Positions 276 to 5,749 of a stretch of DNA of 5,749 bases are shown here, one piece after another. The stretch is taken from the sequence record NZ_CP102537.1; one strand, written 5' to 3'. The position numbers and the translations under genes are program-made. The stretch's first letter is position 1; each line of letters starts with the position of its first letter. Below the pieces are notes generated by a model. That model searched no databases. It was not told the DNA's origin and was given only the letters and a program-made list of their open reading frames with translations. The DNA comes from a plasmid.

Positions 276-1737
276 GCAGATAGTCCCCCGGTTTGGCTTC
301 GCCATCAGCTATGGCGTCCTGCTGTTCGTCAGTGAGTATGACGCCACCGGGCAAGAGCCGTGCGACTTCCTGCCAGTCTTCGCGTTCGGCGGCATCCAAT
401 GCGTCGGCCAGTGTCTCAGGCGCACTCTTGCGAATGTCTTTGTAAACCCGATTCGGCACGACATAGCCGACCAGACCGGGCAGTTCGTCGGCTTTCTCCG
501 CCAGCTCCTCGTCTTCCAGTTCCTCGACCTCCATGTCTTCCTTGAGGCCACGCGACCATGTTATGCAGCGGCGGCGCAGAGTGGCCTGCCAGTATTCGAG
601 CCAGAGATCTTCGCGCTGGAAATCGGACAGCCCGAGGCACCCGGAGTCCAGCAATTGGAACGGGTTAACCGACCCCATACGACCATTCTTGATATCGCCG
701 CGCGCGATTTCCTGAGCCAGAGTGACGCCGCCTTTGTCGCCTTGAATCTTGGTGATGTATTCGGCCGCAGCGGTTCCGGCGTCCTTGCCCGACTTGAATT
801 GCAGATCTATGCCGTGTTCGTCGTTCGGGGCGACGTTGTAGGGGTTGCCGTCTTTTTTCTTGTATGCCTTGGCAACGCGCTTGACCATGGTTTTCCAGCG
901 ATCGAGCAGCCATTGCTGCATTGCCTCACGCTGCCCATCGTCCAGATCGCCATCGAGAAACATGACGAAATGAATGTGAGGGTGCCAGCCGTTCACACCG
1001 TAGGTGATTTCAATCGCGCGGACGAAACCCCTGATTTTCCAACGTTCCGAGGCCCGTTGCCAAGGGCTTCCGTTAATCATCTTCGTCCAGCCCTTGAGGA
1101 TTGCGTCAAGGGTCATGGCCAGCGGCATTGTCCGATCATGGCGCAGGGTGAGGGTGCCGAAGATGTAGTTTCCGAAGCTGTCGGACACCATGAGTTCCGG
1201 CGGCAGACGCTGCCCCTCATGTTCTGCCTGCCATTGGTCGGCGGCGGCTTTCCTCAGTTTCTCGGCATGGTTCCCGATGGCGAGGGCGACCTCGTGGGCG
1301 CGTTCGTGGCGAATGATTGCCGAGCAGGTGGGGCATGCCCAGATCGAGCCGCACAGCATGGTGCCTGTAAACCGGGCTTTCTCGCCGTTGGTCATGACAC
1401 CCACGCCGGTGTCCACCGGTTGGCCGCAGCGTGCGCAGCGCGGCAGCTTAATCGGCTCGAATCCGAGCGTTTCGCCACCGGCATGACGGACGAGAATCTT
1501 TCGGCTTTCAGCGCGGCGACCATACGCCAGACGCCGTAAATCGGTGCGGGAGAGGGAGGGGGTTATTTTATTCGTCTTTTCCCAAGGCGGGCCGCTACGC
1601 GCCCCGCTTGCCGCTTCCGCGGCTACGCCTTGAGGCTTCGCCGCTACTGCGGCGTGCAGCCGTTCGGCGGTCTGGTGCTGGGACGGTGAAGGGACACCCA
1701 TCGGGTTCCACTTCGTCCCCTGAGTTGGTACACTCAT
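253..1737 (-). CDS. rep: Rolling-circle replication initiator (HUH endonuclease superfamily Rep), 494 aa.
   Basis: The three RCR motifs occur in canonical order. Motif 1 is FGTLTL at aa 193-198. Motif 2, the HUH motif, is GWHPHIHFVMF (H252/H254/H256, nt 970-984). Motif 3 is AAEYITK with catalytic-Tyr candidate Y327 (nt 757-759). An N-terminal CxxC...C...CxxC cluster (C101, C104, C129, C135, C138) is zinc-ribbon-like. ATG at 1735-1737. The C-terminal tail is acidic. Confidence 0.88.
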   Translation of the reverse strand: MSVPTQGTKWNPMGVPSPSQHQTAERLHAAVAAKPQGVAAEAASGARSGPPWEKTNKITPSLSRTDLRRLAYGRRAESRKILVRHAGGETLGFEPIKLPRCARCGQPVDTGVGVMTNGEKARFTGTMLCGSIWACPTCSAIIRHERAHEVALAIGNHAEKLRKAAADQWQAEHEGQRLPPELMVSDSFGNYIFGTLTLRHDRTMPLAMTLDAILKGWTKMINGSPWQRASERWKIRGFVRAIEITYGVNGWHPHIHFVMFLDGDLDDGQREAMQQWLLDRWKTMVKRVAKAYKKKDGNPYNVAPNDEHGIDLQFKSGKDAGTAAAEYITKIQGDKGGVTLAQEIARGDIKNGRMGSVNPFQLLDSGCLGLSDFQREDLWLEYWQATLRRRCITWSRGLKEDMEVEELEDEELAEKADELPGLVGYVVPNRVYKDIRKSAPETLADALDAAEREDWQEVARLLPGGVILTDEQQDAIADGEAKPGDYLPTMSVMV

Positions 1738-1811: not shown

Positions 1812-1848
1812 CCCCCCGGGGTTCCAGCCCCGGGGGGTTTCCTTTTAT
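1812..1848 (+). terminator. GC-rich hairpin: CCCCCCGGGG (1812-1821), loop TTCCAG, CCCCGGGGGG (1828-1837), followed on the + strand by TTTCCTTTTAT. It has intrinsic-terminator geometry on the + strand. It also lies 16 nt downstream of the stop of the leftward FtsK-like gene, so it may act as a terminator or insulator for that operon.
   Basis: Perfect 10-bp stem with a 6-nt loop read from the sequence. The U-tract is present only on the + strand side; the - strand side reads AAUCUUGAAAG. Confidence 0.5.
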
Positions 1849-3293: not shown

Positions 3294-3657
3294 TGTCCGC
3301 CTCCGTGAGGTCGAACGAGGCCGAGAGGTCACGCATATACTGTGCCTGCGCGTGACGGGTCATGTAGCGGTCGTGCAGGTACTCCCACGCTGTGGCGGTG
3401 ACGCGCAGCTCATACCATTCGGCACCGTAGACATCGCGGTCGATTATGGTCAGCCAGCGAGGCCAGTCGTCACCGAGGAGATCGCGGGCGACCTGAGCGG
3501 CATCGCCGCGAGTCTCAAAGCTGATTCCGACCATGTTGGCGAGAATCCCATAGCGCACGGCCTTTTCGCCGTCACAGGTGAGATCGAAGCCACAGCGAAG
3601 CGCGTAGTCGAGGAGCTTTCGGTCGAGCTCCAATGTGAACGTGTCTTCTTTTTCCAT
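3286..3657 (-). CDS. Hypothetical protein, 123 aa, with no motif I can recognise.
   Basis: ATG at 3655-3657 preceded by GGAGG, 5-nt spacing. It directly abuts the stop of the upstream RHH gene (TGA at 3658-3660). Its stop TAG at 3286-3288 lies 2 nt before the next ATG. Coding-like composition. Confidence 0.55.
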   Translation of the reverse strand: MEKEDTFTLELDRKLLDYALRCGFDLTCDGEKAVRYGILANMVGISFETRGDAAQVARDLLGDDWPRWLTIIDRDVYGAEWYELRVTATAWEYLHDRYMTRHAQAQYMRDLSASFDLTEADND

Positions 3658-3825
3658 TCATTCCTCCATTCGAGCGAGCATTGCGGGCACTTCCGCTTCC
3701 ACAAGACGGTTGATGATGCTGGAGCGCGAAGTGTTGGTGTACCCCTCACGCTTGGCCCTATAGACGGCATCGTCCAGAGCGGCGACGGTGGTGCAGGGCA
3801 ATGTGATGCAGATACGGCGAAGCAT
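3658..3825 (-). CDS. Ribbon-helix-helix (CopG/Arc/MetJ-type) DNA-binding protein, 55 aa: MLRRICITLPCTTVAALDDAVYRAKREGYTNTSRSSIINRLVEAEVPAMLARMEE. Likely operon repressor.
   Basis: An N-terminal beta-strand (RICITLP) followed by two helices is the typical RHH layout. ATG at 3823-3825 preceded by GGAGGAGGAG, 5-nt spacing. The longer ORF-track start at 3930 lacks this RBS and would overlap the upstream gene. Confidence 0.6.
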   Translation of the reverse strand: MLRRICITLPCTTVAALDDAVYRAKREGYTNTSRSSIINRLVEAEVPAMLARMEE

Positions 3826-3827
3826 TT

Positions 3828-4246: not shown

Positions 4247-4329
4247 GCTGGGGCACGGGATTGCGCCCCAGCGGACTTTCACCAAACAGCATACAGGCAT
4301 ACCTGTATATTGTCAACAGTTTAAACTGT
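4247..4329. promoter_or_regulatory. Cluster of dyad symmetries in the divergent intergenic region. An 8-bp-stem hairpin GCTGGGGC...GCCCCAGC (4247-4272) falls in the 5'UTR of the leftward operon. The inverted repeat ATACAGGcataCCTGTAT (4291-4308) sits inside the promoter spacer. A perfect 14-bp palindrome ACAGTTTAAACTGT lies at 4316-4329. CTGTAT/ACTGTA motifs recur at 4303-4308, 4325-4330 and 4344-4349. Likely operator sites.
   Basis: Read directly from the sequence. The sites overlap the candidate promoters of both divergent transcription units. Confidence 0.5.
4288..4316 (-). promoter_or_regulatory. Candidate sigma-70-type promoter for the leftward five-gene operon. The -35 TTGACA is the complement of 4311-4316, followed by a 17-nt spacer. 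The -10 TATGCT is the complement of 4288-4293.
   Basis: Perfect -35 hexamer with canonical spacing, read on the minus strand. The spacer contains the inverted repeat ATACAGG-n4-CCTGTAT (4291-4308). Confidence 0.4.
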
Positions 4330-4358: not shown

Positions 4359-4862
4359 ATGAATCAGCCAAAATTCGACATCATTCCCGACGAAACGAAC
4401 CGGGAACACAACACCAGAACCAAAGCGGCACTGGAGCTGCTGGAAAGCAACAAAGAATTACGCGACTGGGCAAAAACCCACTTCCTCGCAGAATTACGCA
4501 ACATGATTACCAATCAGATAGTCGAGGAAGGTCATGAACTCTCAGACGAACTCATGAAGTACGGCGTACGACTGTGCCCCAAAGTCGCCATGGTTTGGAT
4601 CGCCAATGAATTGGAGAACAACGTGGGCGCGATTACAGAATGGCTTGCCGGTTTTGCCTACTGGGAGGGCGACAGCAAGGCAAATCTTGCAAGGGCTGTA
4701 GGAATACGCCAACAAAGCTACGCCACCCATTTCCGGCAGCTAGAAGAAATCGCAGCAGCCCAAAACAAGGCCGACGAAACCGGACAAGACCAAACAATCA
4801 GCCTCCGAGGGGCACCATTCATAATTCACCCCGGACCCAGCGAAGAAGAAGACCAGGAATAA
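4359..4862 (+). CDS. Hypothetical protein, 167 aa, with a helix-turn-helix-like segment (SKANLARAVGIRQQSYATHFRQL) and an acidic C-terminus. Possible regulator. Lower-GC module.
   Basis: Long ORF with coding-like composition and no SD. A TATGAT -10-like hexamer (4347-4352), preceded by TG, ends 6 nt before the ATG, which suggests a leaderless mRNA. Confidence 0.55.
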   Translation: MNQPKFDIIPDETNREHNTRTKAALELLESNKELRDWAKTHFLAELRNMITNQIVEEGHELSDELMKYGVRLCPKVAMVWIANELENNVGAITEWLAGFAYWEGDSKANLARAVGIRQQSYATHFRQLEEIAAAQNKADETGQDQTISLRGAPFIIHPGPSEEEDQE

Positions 4863-4910
4863 GTGTTCTTGTTTTCTTTCATGCGGGATTGTGCGTTCCG
4901 GCCACCGGAG

Positions 4911-4973
4911 AGTCAAATCTTCAAACCGCGAGGCGGTTTGGTGTGTCTATATAGACACACATCAGATTTGACT
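4911..4973. repeat. Nested dyad-symmetry element. Outer 10-bp arms AGTCAAATCT (4911-4920) and AGATTTGACT (4964-4973) enclose a hairpin CAAACCGC-gag-GCGGTTTG (4922-4940) and a perfect 20-bp palindrome GTGTGTCTATATAGACACAC (4941-4960). Candidate centromere/operator for the par module, and/or terminator of the upstream ORF.
   Basis: All symmetries are perfect and were read from the sequence. The element lies 49 bp after the stop of ORF 4359-4862 and about 120 bp before parA. Confidence 0.55.
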
Positions 4974-5079
4974 ATCCGGCGTCCTCCACTGGGATTTCGC
5001 ATTTAGAAAGAAAACCAGAACCGGAAAACATTCGTCAGCGAACCACCAAAACTATTACACTATCAGAATATTAGTGCGA

Positions 5080-5091: not shown

Positions 5092-5691
5092 ATGATACTT
5101 AGCATTATCGCGTCAAAAGGCGGAACCGGGAAAACGACCAGCAGCATATTCCTAGCCTGCGCCGCTCATACCGCAGACCCGTCACTGTCAATCACCCTCT
5201 TGGACGCCGACCCACAGCAAAGCGCCACGGACTGGGCGGAAGAAGCCGAGCAAAACAAAGACCCGCTCCCTTTCATGGTCAAATACGCCGGAGAATCGGA
5301 CATCGAAAACCTAAAGGACAACGAGGGCCTGACCATCATCGACACGGCACCGGGATTCACCGACCTCACCCAGACAATCATCGCCAAATCAGATCTGTGC
5401 ATCATCACCACCTCACCAACCCAGATTGACGCCCGGAGGGCTTGGAAGACGTTCGAAGCAATCCAAAGAGCAGGCGGAACCTCGGCAATCCTCATCACAC
5501 GAGCCAATACGCGCACGAAGGATTTCAGGGATATGATCGACGACCTGCACAACGACGACGCGAACAATGGAATCCTCTTCGATACCGTCATCAGACAATC
5601 GACCAGATACTCGAAGCCGTTCGGACACACGCCAAAGAAAACCTACGACTATGCAGACGCATGGCAAGAGATACAGAAAGCAGGGGAATGA
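5092..5691 (+). CDS. parA: ParA/Soj-family partition ATPase, small type Ib form, 199 aa.
   Basis: Deviant Walker A KGGTGKTT at the extreme N-terminus (MILSIIASKGGTGKTTS). Walker A' is DADPQ and Walker B is IIDTAPG. Its size and the absence of an N-terminal HTH fit the ParF-like subclass. Confidence 0.88.
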   Translation: MILSIIASKGGTGKTTSSIFLACAAHTADPSLSITLLDADPQQSATDWAEEAEQNKDPLPFMVKYAGESDIENLKDNEGLTIIDTAPGFTDLTQTIIAKSDLCIITTSPTQIDARRAWKTFEAIQRAGGTSAILITRANTRTKDFRDMIDDLHNDDANNGILFDTVIRQSTRYSKPFGHTPKKTYDYADAWQEIQKAGE

Positions 5692-5749
5692 TGGCACTCG
5701 GAAAATTCAGCAGGAAAGCAGCCGAACAGGCACCCGGCGACATCTCAAT
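5688..5749 (+). CDS. 5'-partial CDS, MMALGKFSRKAAEQAPGDIS..., that runs off the window end. Its start overlaps the parA stop as ATGA. Candidate N-terminal flexible tail of a ParG-like centromere-binding partner. It is in frame with the partial ORF at 1-196 across the end-to-start junction.
   Basis: ATG 5688-5690 overlaps TGA 5689-5691. The frame is open to the end. The last two bases AT plus base 1 G form ATG, and the frame continues into the frame-2 ORF ending at 196. Confidence 0.45.
   Translation, partial: MMALGKFSRKAAEQAPGDIS

Follow-up and report, generated by a model that had tools for sequence, protein, structure and literature searches.

The rep region and its relatives

The stretch of DNA analysed here (5,749 nucleotides; the window) is a complete circular rolling-circle plasmid of Bifidobacterium breve, probably pCIBb1. 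Its replication initiator matches the Pfam family Rep_1 (E = 1e-11), is 100% identical to a B. breve plasmid Rep held at NCBI, and counts the Rep proteins of pASV479, pB21a and pIJ101 among its relatives. The gene and the hairpin upstream of it are placed as follows:

253-1737, - strand: rep, the rolling-circle initiator gene, with its start ATG at 1737; proposed target of an antisense RNA
1812-1837, + strand: hp1, a G+C stem-loop and predicted terminator hairpin of that antisense RNA (fold, covariation, present in 16/16 relatives)
1838-1848, + strand: T-rich tail TTTCCTTTTAT, predicted to serve as the terminator's U tract (T bias in 16/16 relatives)

The gene upstream of rep is an ORF on the - strand with its stop codon at 1866-1864, so that the genes on either side of the hairpin both run on the - strand, as originally described. 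Its designation as FtsK-like relies on Pfam matches below threshold. The pB21a counterpart is annotated as FtsK/SpoIIIE, and in L180 and L170 the genes occupying this position give weak or faint matches to FtsK_SpoIIIE and AAA_10. In L087, whose Rep is 99% identical, a MobA/MobL relaxase gene replaces the FtsK-like gene and the hairpin is still present; homology with the window starts at 1901, just upstream of the predicted rep promoter. The GenBank protein AAD34709.1, the original entry of the cluster to which the window's Rep belongs, has an annotated length of 380 aa. If a translation start downstream of 1737 were the real one, occlusion of the ribosome-binding site (RBS) discussed below would not be the mechanism; complementarity of the predicted RNA to the rep transcript would be unaffected.

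Compared as a whole against PLSDB (megablast), the window gave a single 33-bp match and nothing more. Relatives were therefore reached through the Rep protein and then through contigs encoding Rep homologues. The resulting set holds 16 related plasmids (Rep 35-99% identical) from Bifidobacterium isolates or from gut and other metagenome contigs, which through shared ancestry amount to perhaps 8-10 independent lineages. Close relatives also occur in public DNA read sets, for example SRR30170011, SRR30169999 and ERR6153544.

A conserved hairpin with a one-sided T-rich tail

The stem of hp1 is a perfect 10 bp, its arms CCCCCCGGGG (1812-1821) and CCCCGGGGGG (1828-1837) enclosing the 6-nt loop TTCCAG (1822-1827); counting a U.G closing pair on the + strand, there are 11 pairs and a 4-nt loop, UCCA. 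As + strand RNA it folds at -29.3 kcal/mol (z = -4.8; 0/200 shuffles as stable), and the - strand folds equally well (-28.1 kcal/mol). The strands differ in their tails: directly 3' of the hairpin the + strand is U-rich (TTTCCTTTTA), TTTCCTTTTAT having 7 T per 10 nt against 3 T per 10 nt in the - strand tail, AATCTTGAAA. The description of a GC stem followed by a U tract on the + strand alone is thus borne out. Read on the rep strand, the tail of hp1 is the purine-rich 5' end of the predicted rep leader.

In its stable, G+C-rich stem (10-11 bp), its short loop and the U-rich tail on its 3' side, hp1 resembles canonical Rho-independent terminators; it differs from them in that its U tract is broken by two C (an internal CC) and the transcript to be ended is itself predicted. 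A terminator scan of the window ranked hp1 on the + strand as its top terminator-like site, while such sites are not enriched there as a class (7 found vs 5.5 expected).

A hairpin lies 71-81 nt upstream of the rep ATG in all 16 related plasmids, with eight different stem sequences among them. Because MAFFT put some hairpin arms in the wrong place, the hairpins were located by direct search and pairs were counted on an RNAalifold alignment. Double compensatory changes occur at 7 of the 11 pairs, 97.7% of the alignment cells pair (35-43% with slid partners), and the covariation score was reached by none of 500 shuffles. The tail behaves similarly in that its composition is conserved and its sequence is not: every relative has 5-8 T per 10 nt after the hairpin on the antisense strand, compared to 1-4 on the rep-sense strand. 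The recurrence of the hairpin with this one-sided T run in all 16 relatives is the strongest support for the original description. Read-through from the par operon does not explain the terminator, which is kept whichever way par is oriented (co-oriented with rep in L168, L170, L171 and L180, on the opposite strand in the window).

The orientation extends beyond this set. Of the canonical terminators that precede rep across 143 non-redundant Rep_1 loci, 21 are antisense-oriented and two sense-oriented. In three distant proteobacterial loci (L040, L042 and L060), an antisense TAGAAT lies over rep codons 2-4 and is followed, after 71-75 nt, by a terminator hairpin; the loop of this hairpin is UUGGCG in L060, its complement in L040 and different in L042.

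Predicted promoters and a predicted antisense RNA

The hairpin can be placed within a set of promoter-like elements and further stem-loops, as follows:

1726-1734, + strand: extended -10 TGGTACACT of the predicted antisense promoter; TGNTAYACT invariant in 16/16 relatives
1861-1889, - strand: predicted rep promoter TTGCGA-17-TAAACT (-35 at 1889-1884, -10 at 1866-1861)
1741-1846, + strand: predicted ctRNA (countertranscript), about 105 nt long and folding into three stem-loops, its ends deduced from promoter/terminator geometry
1742-1759, no strand assigned: SL1 (hp3), a small hairpin over the rep ribosome-binding region (RBS AGAAAG, - strand 1751-1746)
1761-1797, no strand assigned: SL2 (hp2), the proposed kissing loop, with stem GCCAGCGGT/ACCGCTAGC and a 19-nt loop containing GTTTGGCGAC
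1812-1837, + strand: SL3 of the predicted ctRNA, i.e. hp1, the terminator hairpin
1795-1806, - strand: 12-mer box TGAAAGTCCGCT between hp1 and hp2, with a second copy at 4270-4281

The extended -10 is a candidate promoter lying opposite the 5' end of rep. Judged in one sequence alone, a motif of the TGNTAYACT type is not significant; across the relatives it is the best + strand promoter-like site in 13 of 16. Its -35 candidate is a weak TTCCAC (1706-1711, 17-nt spacer), and promoter activity would therefore rest on the TG extension. The element is made of rep codons 2-4 (AGT-GTA/ATA-NCA), which include rare codons (AGT makes up 2.7% of the Ser codons and GTA 9.8% of the Val codons). In the NCA codon the first base varies and CA is fixed, the amino acid being P, S or A. 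A/T-rich rare codons are common at gene starts for translation-initiation reasons, and such a preference could lie behind part of this pattern.

On the - strand, the predicted rep promoter places its -10, TAAACT, over the stop codon of the upstream gene, with a transcript start predicted near 1854. A pair of the form TTGCAA/TTGCGA -16/17- TAGACT/TACACT/TAGGCT/TAAACT is kept in 12 of the 16 relatives, matching the consensus at 8 of 12 positions in nine of them and at 7 of 12 in three pB21a-type sequences. Three pASV479-type sequences have another, weaker pair (GACACG/GCGACA with TATGAT), and the best-scoring pair of L181 also differs. The predicted -10 always stands 15-24 nt upstream of hp1, and the -35 occupies differing reading frames of the upstream gene across relatives. 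Because this predicted promoter lies upstream of hp1, the hairpin would fall inside the rep leader, whose predicted length of about 115 nt would be fully covered by the predicted antisense RNA (the promoter pair being clear in 12 of 16 relatives and weaker or different in four). The stretch separating hp1 from hp2 yielded no convincing rep-sense promoter. We also weighed an alternative in which the hp2 loop supplies the -35 of rep and TACAAC the -10, and dropped it in favour of the better-placed promoter upstream of hp1; hp2 moreover has a conserved U.G pair on the rep-sense strand, which would fit a transcribed leader and spoke against this alternative.

The predicted ctRNA folds at -46.9 kcal/mol (z = -4.1), and its three-hairpin layout and predicted length (102-113 nt) are common to the 16 relatives. 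In hp3, the pairs never vary and so give no covariation signal; an invariant + strand G.U pair would be an A/C mismatch on the rep-sense strand. By contrast, hp2 shows compensatory changes at five pairs, and it carries a loop that would suit rapid loop-loop contact. The core of that loop, UUGGCG (1777-1782 on + strand RNA), is kept on one strand or the other in 16/16 relatives, having flipped to the other strand in L003, pASV479, L174 and L176. A permissive Rfam search returned no relevant family.

Within the predicted leader, the AAAGU of the box TGAAAGTCCGCT pairs with an ACUUU across hp2. The same 12 nt would form the start of the transfer-operon mRNA (4270-4281), and across the plasmids a change in one copy is matched by a change in the other. 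RNAduplex could not separate the cognate pairing of the predicted antisense RNA and the transfer-operon leader from non-cognate or shuffled pairings (z about -1.6), so that the idea of a trans target stands on the shared 12-mer.

The original prediction proposed a + strand transcript that ends at the hairpin and is antisense to the rep leader. The in silico evidence supports such a countertranscript and gives it a comparative basis (an antisense -10, a fixed distance, a covarying stem, a + strand T run, an upstream rep promoter and the UUGGCG loop); the transcript itself is a prediction. We consider it fairly probable that a + strand RNA of about 105 nt, antisense to the rep leader, has hp1 and its T run as its Rho-independent terminator. 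In such a scheme, rep would be transcribed on the - strand from TTGCGA-17-TAAACT at the end of the upstream gene, with a leader presenting the hp1 complement, hp2 and the RBS in that order. The antisense RNA would initiate at TGGTACACT over rep codons 2-4, cross the RBS and hp2 and end at hp1. Its first contact with the leader would probably be made through the UUGGCG-bearing loop of hp2; pairing would then spread over the RBS and reduce Rep synthesis in proportion to copy number. The complement of hp1 should also fold near the 5' end of the rep mRNA and could further stabilise that mRNA.

Competing readings, known systems and significance

The hairpin could instead act on - strand RNA only, without any antisense RNA, either as a terminator or attenuator lacking a U tract, which would stop or reduce transcription of the transfer operon in front of rep, or as a stabiliser of the rep mRNA 5' end. 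Its place 26 nt beyond the upstream gene's stop codon and its equally good - strand fold agree with this, as does its distance of about 17 nt from the predicted rep mRNA 5' end, a typical place for a stabilising stem-loop. U-tract-less terminators have, in addition, been reported in high-G+C Actinobacteria. Yet a role confined to the - strand leaves unexplained both the one-sided T-rich run on the opposite strand in 16/16 relatives and the antisense extended -10 at its fixed distance. Moreover, hp1 stays with rep in L087 despite the change of neighbouring gene, and a strong - strand terminator at this place would block rep transcription from the predicted promoter. These same two points, the predicted promoter upstream of hp1 and the hairpin retained beside a relaxase, weaken the earlier suggestion that the hairpin insulates rep from the transfer operon. 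We judge a purely - strand role unlikely. A stabilising function at the 5' end and a terminator function on the antisense strand can coexist. Another notion is that the region is the clt locus of FtsK-type actinomycete conjugation. In Streptomyces plasmids (PMC3583192), clt adjoins tra at its 3' end and includes repeats both direct and inverted; here the - strand carries three copies of GAAAGTC (1804-1798, 1750-1744 and 4279-4273). Against this, hp1 is not conserved in sequence, its region travels with rep, and the neighbouring FtsK-like transfer gene does not accompany it in L087, where hp1, hp2 and the 12-mer box are all kept next to a MobA/MobL relaxase gene. A clt at this site seems very improbable.

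The two replication origins were also candidate functions for the hairpin, and better places for both were found elsewhere in the plasmid:

1557-1611, - strand: CTTGGGAA block inside rep, best double-strand-origin candidate; a small covarying hairpin, then CCTTGGGAAAAGACGAATAAAATAACCCCC
4864-5021, no strand assigned: palindrome of about 160 nt, best single-strand-origin candidate (DNA fold, identity island)

A double-strand origin at hp1 would have Rep nick at the adjoining CTTG/A (- strand 1809-1805). The initiator is of the Rep_1 (pC194/pIJ101) type, and the - strand reads hairpin-AATCTTGAAAG, resembling CTTG/ATA, the motif at which pC194 and phiX174 are nicked. PMC11600335 places the origins of this family upstream of rep. 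We initially favoured this origin, with its nick at CTTGAAAG, and dropped it once the motif proved to be missing from the 99%-Rep relative and the CTTGGGAA block was found. Next to hp1, CTTG is absent from L087 (which has ATCTGAAAG), pB21a (ATCTGAAGC), L180, L089, L181 and the pASV479 group, pASV479 having nothing similar. The hairpin also changes sequence freely while keeping its pairing, which is not how a Rep-binding site behaves; its eight stem sequences lack the conservation expected of a Rep recognition region. The block at 1557-1611, on the other hand, is the most conserved stretch of the rep region (0.89-0.94 vs 0.24-0.37 in its flanks; peak at 1572-1614), with CTTGGGAA conserved at 1579-1586, and it shares CCTTGGGAAAG with pIJ101 and pSN22. 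In L173 this origin-like block of rep is kept and hp1 is absent. Relative to pC194 and pIJ101/pJV1-type origins, then, the Rep family and a hairpin near CTTG are alike, while the nick motif is conserved not at hp1 but 230 nt away inside rep. We see very little chance that hp1 belongs to the double-strand origin. That hp1 and hp2 form a single-strand origin for lagging-strand synthesis we find scarcely credible. In favour, both hairpins are stable and lie in non-coding DNA of a plasmid that replicates by rolling circle. Single-strand origins are, however, usually long imperfect palindromes; hp1 has only 26 nt, and such a palindrome exists at 4864-5021, an island of 85-89% identity in L003 and L004 (the 176-nt stretch 4855-5030 folds as DNA at -49.9 kcal/mol, z = -11). 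Both origin readings of hp1, raised as alternatives in the original prediction, are thus unsupported in view of these much better candidates.

The preferred reading, an antisense RNA ending at hp1, has parallels in known systems. It had earlier been coupled to a ribbon-helix-helix (RHH) repressor thought to be encoded in the window. Pfam detected no RHH domain in either of the two small candidate proteins (E up to 5); the gene of one follows parA, as that of a partition protein would, the other is buried in the transfer operon, and neither adjoins rep. The RHH gene is therefore not confirmed, and its pairing with the antisense RNA is unsupported. In pMV158, the CopG RHH repressor gene lies just upstream of repB and is co-transcribed with it (PMC5717011). 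The RNAII of pMV158/pLS1 resembles the RNA predicted here in being an antisense RNA of a rolling-circle plasmid whose target is the translation-initiation region of rep and whose 3' end is set by an intrinsic terminator; the window differs in its Rep family, in having no detected RHH domain, and in the gene upstream of rep, which encodes an FtsK-like ATPase (a relaxase in L087). Another parallel is the rolling-circle plasmid pGA1 of Corynebacterium glutamicum, whose ctRNA overlaps the rep start and controls the plasmid (Venkova-Canova et al. 2003, as described in PMC9592669). The likeness is one of description: in both actinobacterial rolling-circle plasmids a small RNA against the rep start limits, or in the window is predicted to limit, Rep and copy number. 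The nick site of pGA1 is reported to lie in the 3' part of rep, whereas the origin-like block of the window lies in the 5' part.

ColIb-P9-type systems belong to enterobacterial theta-type plasmids and use pseudoknot-based translational control. The title of Asano et al. (1998) names the hexamer 5'-rUUGGCG-3' as an antisense-RNA loop motif, and the predicted RNA of the window shares with ColIb-P9 Inc RNA and related RNAs the presence of UUGGCG in the loop of an interacting antisense/target stem-loop. The window differs in being a Gram-positive rolling-circle replicon, with the hexamer on the antisense RNA or on the mRNA depending on the relative. Antisense-RNA copy control is a classical mechanism, and we found no description of it in the literature for this plasmid group; O'Riordan and Fitzgerald (1999) and Lee and O'Sullivan (2010) may discuss the hairpin.

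A broader proposal, which we regard as rather doubtful, is that these RNAs form an undescribed antisense class for Rep_1 initiators, ranging from Bifidobacterium to Proteobacteria. Its members may combine an antisense -10 lying over rep codons 2-4 with a terminator at a distance of 70-110 nt and a kissing loop that contains UUGGCG. Inversion between the stem arms may flip this loop, putting the U-turn motif on the antisense RNA or on the mRNA according to the plasmid. In Bifidobacterium plasmids, the transfer-operon mRNA might be a further target of the antisense RNA, reached in trans; if so, copy-number sensing would be coupled to the expression of transfer genes. Should the antisense prediction be wrong, something else would have to account for the strict one-sided T run and the conservation of TGNTAYACT.

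Cloning vectors for bifidobacteria, which are gut commensals, are built from their small plasmids. Knowing the copy-number and incompatibility element would show those who design such vectors which 130 bp they should retain, alter or delete, and the model specifies the exact positions of both promoters, of the terminator and the kissing loop, and of a likely nick site. More widely, the pattern of an antisense -10 over the first rep codons combined with a strand-flipping loop suggests that, compared with what the small number of characterised examples indicates, UUGGCG-based antisense control is older and more widespread among Rep_1 replicons.

The plasmid and its initiator

Rep, encoded on the minus strand at 253-1737, matches Pfam Rep_1 (E = 1e-11) and is a rolling-circle initiator of the pC194/pIJ101 type. 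It is 100% identical to the NCBI entry 'protein rep (plasmid) [Bifidobacterium breve]', and its 90% cluster contains AAD34709.1, a B. breve replication protein from 1999. The plasmid of B. breve NCFB 2258, pCIBb1, measures 5.75 kb (PMC4007704); the window (5749 bp) is probably pCIBb1 or a near copy. We regard it as a complete circular plasmid because an 84-aa ORF starts at 5691, runs off the window's end and continues in frame through 1-196 (5691-5749 plus 1-196), and because the two ends of the window abut in a related contig, L087 (4708 and 4707). In PLSDB the closest sequenced plasmids are pASV479 (Rep 52%) and pB21a (36%), with pIJ101-like Streptomyces plasmids next; the sole megablast match there is an exact 33-bp match of 3636-3668 to the 184-kb B. 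longum plasmid NZ_CP143940.1. Annotated Rep lengths vary: AAD34709.1, the cluster's original GenBank protein, has 380 aa versus 494 aa in the current annotation, and the RefSeq annotation of pASV479 rep is likewise short. The open frame and the Cys residues conserved in all relatives favour the long form, with a predicted start codon.

A stem-loop ahead of rep and its predicted transcripts

Features discussed (window coordinates unless a contig is named)
1726-1734, plus strand: predicted antisense extended -10, TGGTACACT; TGNTAYACT is invariant in relatives
1889-1884 (-35) and 1866-1861 (-10), minus strand: predicted rep promoter, from recurrent hexamers
1761-1797: second stem-loop, hp2, between the first (hp1) and rep; five covarying pairs, 19-nt loop
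1611-1557, minus strand: candidate double-strand origin, GCGAGCGGGGCGCGTAGCGGCCCGCCTTGGGAAAAGACGAATAAAATAACCCCC, inside rep, about 150 nt past the ATG
4864-5021: candidate single-strand origin, an imperfect palindrome (about 160 nt long) located between a 167-aa ORF and parA, from DNA folding
L040 344-363, L060 2086-2105, L042 4068-4089: proteobacterial sites antisense to rep

On the plus strand, hp1 consists of CCCCCCGGGG (1812-1821), the loop TTCCAG (1822-1827) and CCCCGGGGGG (1828-1837), followed by TTTCCTTTTAT. It lies between two minus-strand genes, the upstream ORF ending with TAA at 1866-1864 and rep starting with ATG at 1737. The plus-strand RNA folds at -29.3 kcal/mol (z = -4.8; none of 200 shuffles was as stable) and the minus-strand RNA at -28.1 kcal/mol. 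A consensus scanner ranks hp1 as the window's top terminator-like site, on the plus strand, although such sites are not enriched as a class (7 found versus 5.5 expected). Sequence, fold and scanner thus bear out the original prediction's account of the hairpin, its plus-strand T run and the two flanking genes.

We compared, in rep-sense orientation, 16 plasmid sequences whose Rep is 35-99% identical to that of the window, drawn from genome, metagenome and read-archive assemblies (Bifidobacterium isolates, and contigs from gut and other metagenomes or read archives). All 16 carry a counterpart of hp1, a perfect stem of 8-12 bp whose end lies 71-81 nt upstream of the rep ATG. The stems have eight different sequences, including that of the window, ATCCCCCGGA/TCCGGGGGAT, CCCTCGGGG/CCCCGAGGG, GCTCTCGGAG/CTCCGAGAGC and AAGCCCCC/GGGGGCTT. 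In an RNAalifold alignment of 12 distinct sequences, two-sided changes that keep the pair occur at 7 of 11 pairs, 97.7% of alignment cells are paired (35-43% with slid partners), and the observed covariation was reached in none of 500 shuffles, a pattern indicating selection on the structure of hp1, not on its sequence. The 10 nt after hp1 contain 5-8 T on the window's plus strand versus 1-4 on the rep-sense strand in every relative; the run varies in sequence (TTTCCTTTTA, TTCTTCATTT, TTTTCTTCTT, TTTCTTCTTT) at constant composition, as terminator tails do. hp1 is real, conserved and structurally selected.

A promoter-like site that would serve a plus-strand RNA is also conserved. The extended -10 is present in 16/16 relatives, and the best plus-strand sigma-70-like site falls at the same place in 13 of them; tested alone in a single sequence, the motif was not significant. 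In reverse complement it spells rep codons 2-4 (3-5 in the pASV479 group), AGT GTA/ATA NCA. AGT supplies 2.7% of Ser codons in the window's own genes, GTA 9.8% of Val and CCA 14.5% of Pro, and the fourth rep codon (CCA, TCA or GCA) changes its amino acid between Pro, Ser and Ala while retaining the final CA that forms the TG of the extended -10. Rare codons, together with a fixed CA under a changing amino acid, point to a constraint on DNA rather than protein. If it started about 7 nt past the -10, near 1741, and stopped within the T run, near 1846, the predicted RNA would be about 105 nt long, and 102-113 nt in the relatives.

A rep-sense hexamer pair recurs at the extreme end of the upstream gene. 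In 12/16 relatives it reads TTGCAA or TTGCGA, then, after 16-17 nt, TAGACT, TACACT, TAGGCT or TAAACT; three pASV479-type sequences have a weaker pair (GACACG or GCGACA with TATGAT), and the best pair in L181 is a different one. The distance from the predicted -10 to hp1 is always 15-24 nt. The reading frame of the upstream gene into which the -35 falls differs among plasmids, as do the C-terminal protein sequences, so the constraint looks to be at the DNA level. Such a promoter would place hp1 about 17 nt inside a rep leader of roughly 115 nt, and the antisense RNA would span that whole leader.

The role of hp1

The most likely role of hp1, and in our judgement a moderately probable one, is as terminator of a replication-control antisense RNA; it may additionally serve as a 5' stem-loop in the rep mRNA. 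All statements on transcripts of this region are predictions. The suggestion that hp1 is a U-tract-independent terminator insulating rep from the transfer operon fits poorly, since with the predicted rep promoter upstream of hp1 a strong minus-strand terminator there would make no sense. In L087 (Rep 99%), moreover, a MobA/MobL relaxase (E = 3.5e-62) takes the place of the FtsK-like gene, homology with the window begins at 1901, immediately ahead of the predicted rep -35, and hp1 stays with rep. By this comparison, transfer type is exchanged as a module with its breakpoint just upstream of the predicted promoter, so that promoter, hp1, leader and rep move as one unit. The replaced stretch (982-2184 in L087, 1902-3041 in the window) covers both the FtsK-like ATPase and its membrane partner. 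We also rejected hp1 as a stop for par transcripts reading through: parA and its partner gene, on the plus strand here, are co-oriented with rep in L168, L170, L171 and L180, and all four retain hp1 and the T run.

Nor do origins of replication account well for hp1. The 99%-Rep relative lacks the adjacent CTTG expected of a double-strand origin, as do the pB21a and pASV479 groups, and a far better-conserved block lies inside rep. This block (1557-1611) is present in every Bifidobacterium relative checked outside the pB21a type, among them L173 (56% Rep identity), which lacks hp1. It is the conservation peak of the 1.65-kb rep alignment (0.89-0.94 versus 0.24-0.37 in the flanks), has a small covarying hairpin just ahead of CTTGGGAA (1579-1586, minus strand), and shares CCTTGGGAAAG with pIJ101 and pSN22, where that motif lies either ahead of rep or within its 5' part. 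Presumably it matches the published nick site, and it is probably the double-strand origin with its nick site, embedded in coding sequence. The 55-nt block's hairpin has a GTA loop and is followed by CCTTGGGAAAAGACGAATAAAATAACCCCC. As a single-strand origin, hp1 is surpassed by the palindrome at 4864-5021: the 176-nt stretch containing it (4855-5030) folds as DNA at -49.9 kcal/mol (z = -11), and it forms an island of 85-89% identity in contigs L003 and L004 whose flanks do not align. It is likely the single-strand origin.

The original prediction paired an antisense RNA with a ribbon-helix-helix (RHH) repressor. The RNA gains from the conserved promoter-like site and hairpin; the repressor finds no support, as Pfam found no RHH domain in either the 55-aa ORF (3658-3827) or the 84-aa end-spanning protein, and neither adjoins rep, so that dual control of the pMV158 type is not supported. 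The 84-aa protein follows parA and precedes direct repeats, as in partition proteins. These repeats (ACTATGACACT/ATCA, 196-270), with a related copy upstream of parA (5050-5075), probably serve the partition module as centromere or operator, rather than Rep as iterons.

The second stem-loop, the leader and known systems

In every relative the hp2 loop carries GTCGCCAAACT on one strand or the other; on the window's plus strand it reads GUUUGGCGAC. UUGGCG is reportedly, from the title of Asano et al. 1998, the loop hexamer of the ColIb-P9 antisense Inc RNA. The hexamer folds into a U-turn, which accelerates contact between loops. Four relatives (L003, pASV479, L174 and L176) have the loop in inverted orientation within unchanged stem arms, which would move the hexamer from the antisense RNA to the mRNA; the close relatives L003 and L004 differ by exactly this inversion. 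A kissing pair would tolerate the flip because either partner can bear the motif. The loop spans 1770-1788 in the window and 5522-5541 in L003, the conserved UUUGGCGA motif switching strand. The small hairpin that covers the ribosome-binding region (1742-1759) contains a G.U pair, invariant on the plus strand, whose counterpart on the opposite strand would be A/C, and in hp2 a U.G is conserved on the rep-sense strand; together these weakly support transcription of both strands. AGAAAG is left free in the predicted rep leader fold.

The 12-mer between hp1 and hp2 (1795-1806) recurs at 4247-4281 (minus strand) as TGAAAGTCCGCT plus a hairpin with loop AATCCC. This element lies directly past the -10 of a promoter-like site of the transfer operon (4316-4288) and would be the 5' end of its mRNA. 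The two copies co-vary in relatives (TCCGC in both, or CTTGC in both), which suggests that they share a trans-acting factor or that the antisense RNA has a second target; duplex energies for the RNA against this transfer-operon leader were uninformative. The palindrome ATACAGGTATGCCTGTAT (4290-4309, minus strand) fills the spacer of that TTGACA-17-TATGCT site, opposite the divergent 167-aa ORF, and is likely an operator.

By analogy, the arrangement would function as countertranscript control does in rolling-circle plasmids. Its closest known parallel is pGA1 of Corynebacterium glutamicum, where, according to PMC9592669, a countertranscript overlaps the rep start, as the RNA predicted here would. 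RNAII of pMV158 is similarly arranged but has a CopG partner that the window lacks, and the UUGGCG loop is common to the enterobacterial Inc RNA. Rfam held no matching family, and no description of an antisense RNA for pCIBb1-type plasmids was found in literature other than the primary papers.

Across 143 non-redundant loci encoding Rep_1 relatives, canonical terminators in the roughly 330 nt upstream of rep were antisense in 21 cases and sense in 2, counted irrespective of the upstream gene's orientation; the Bifidobacterium clade accounts for 13 of the 21. The proteobacterial contigs L040, L042 and L060 (Rep 27-29%) carry TAGAAT on the antisense strand across rep codons 2-4, followed at a distance of 71-75 nt by GGGCAG-loop-CTGCCC-TTTTTTATT, a canonical antisense-oriented terminator; its loop is TTTGGCGA (UUGGCG) in L060, the complement in L040 and different in L042. 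The antisense-RNA layout may be widespread in the Rep_1 family.
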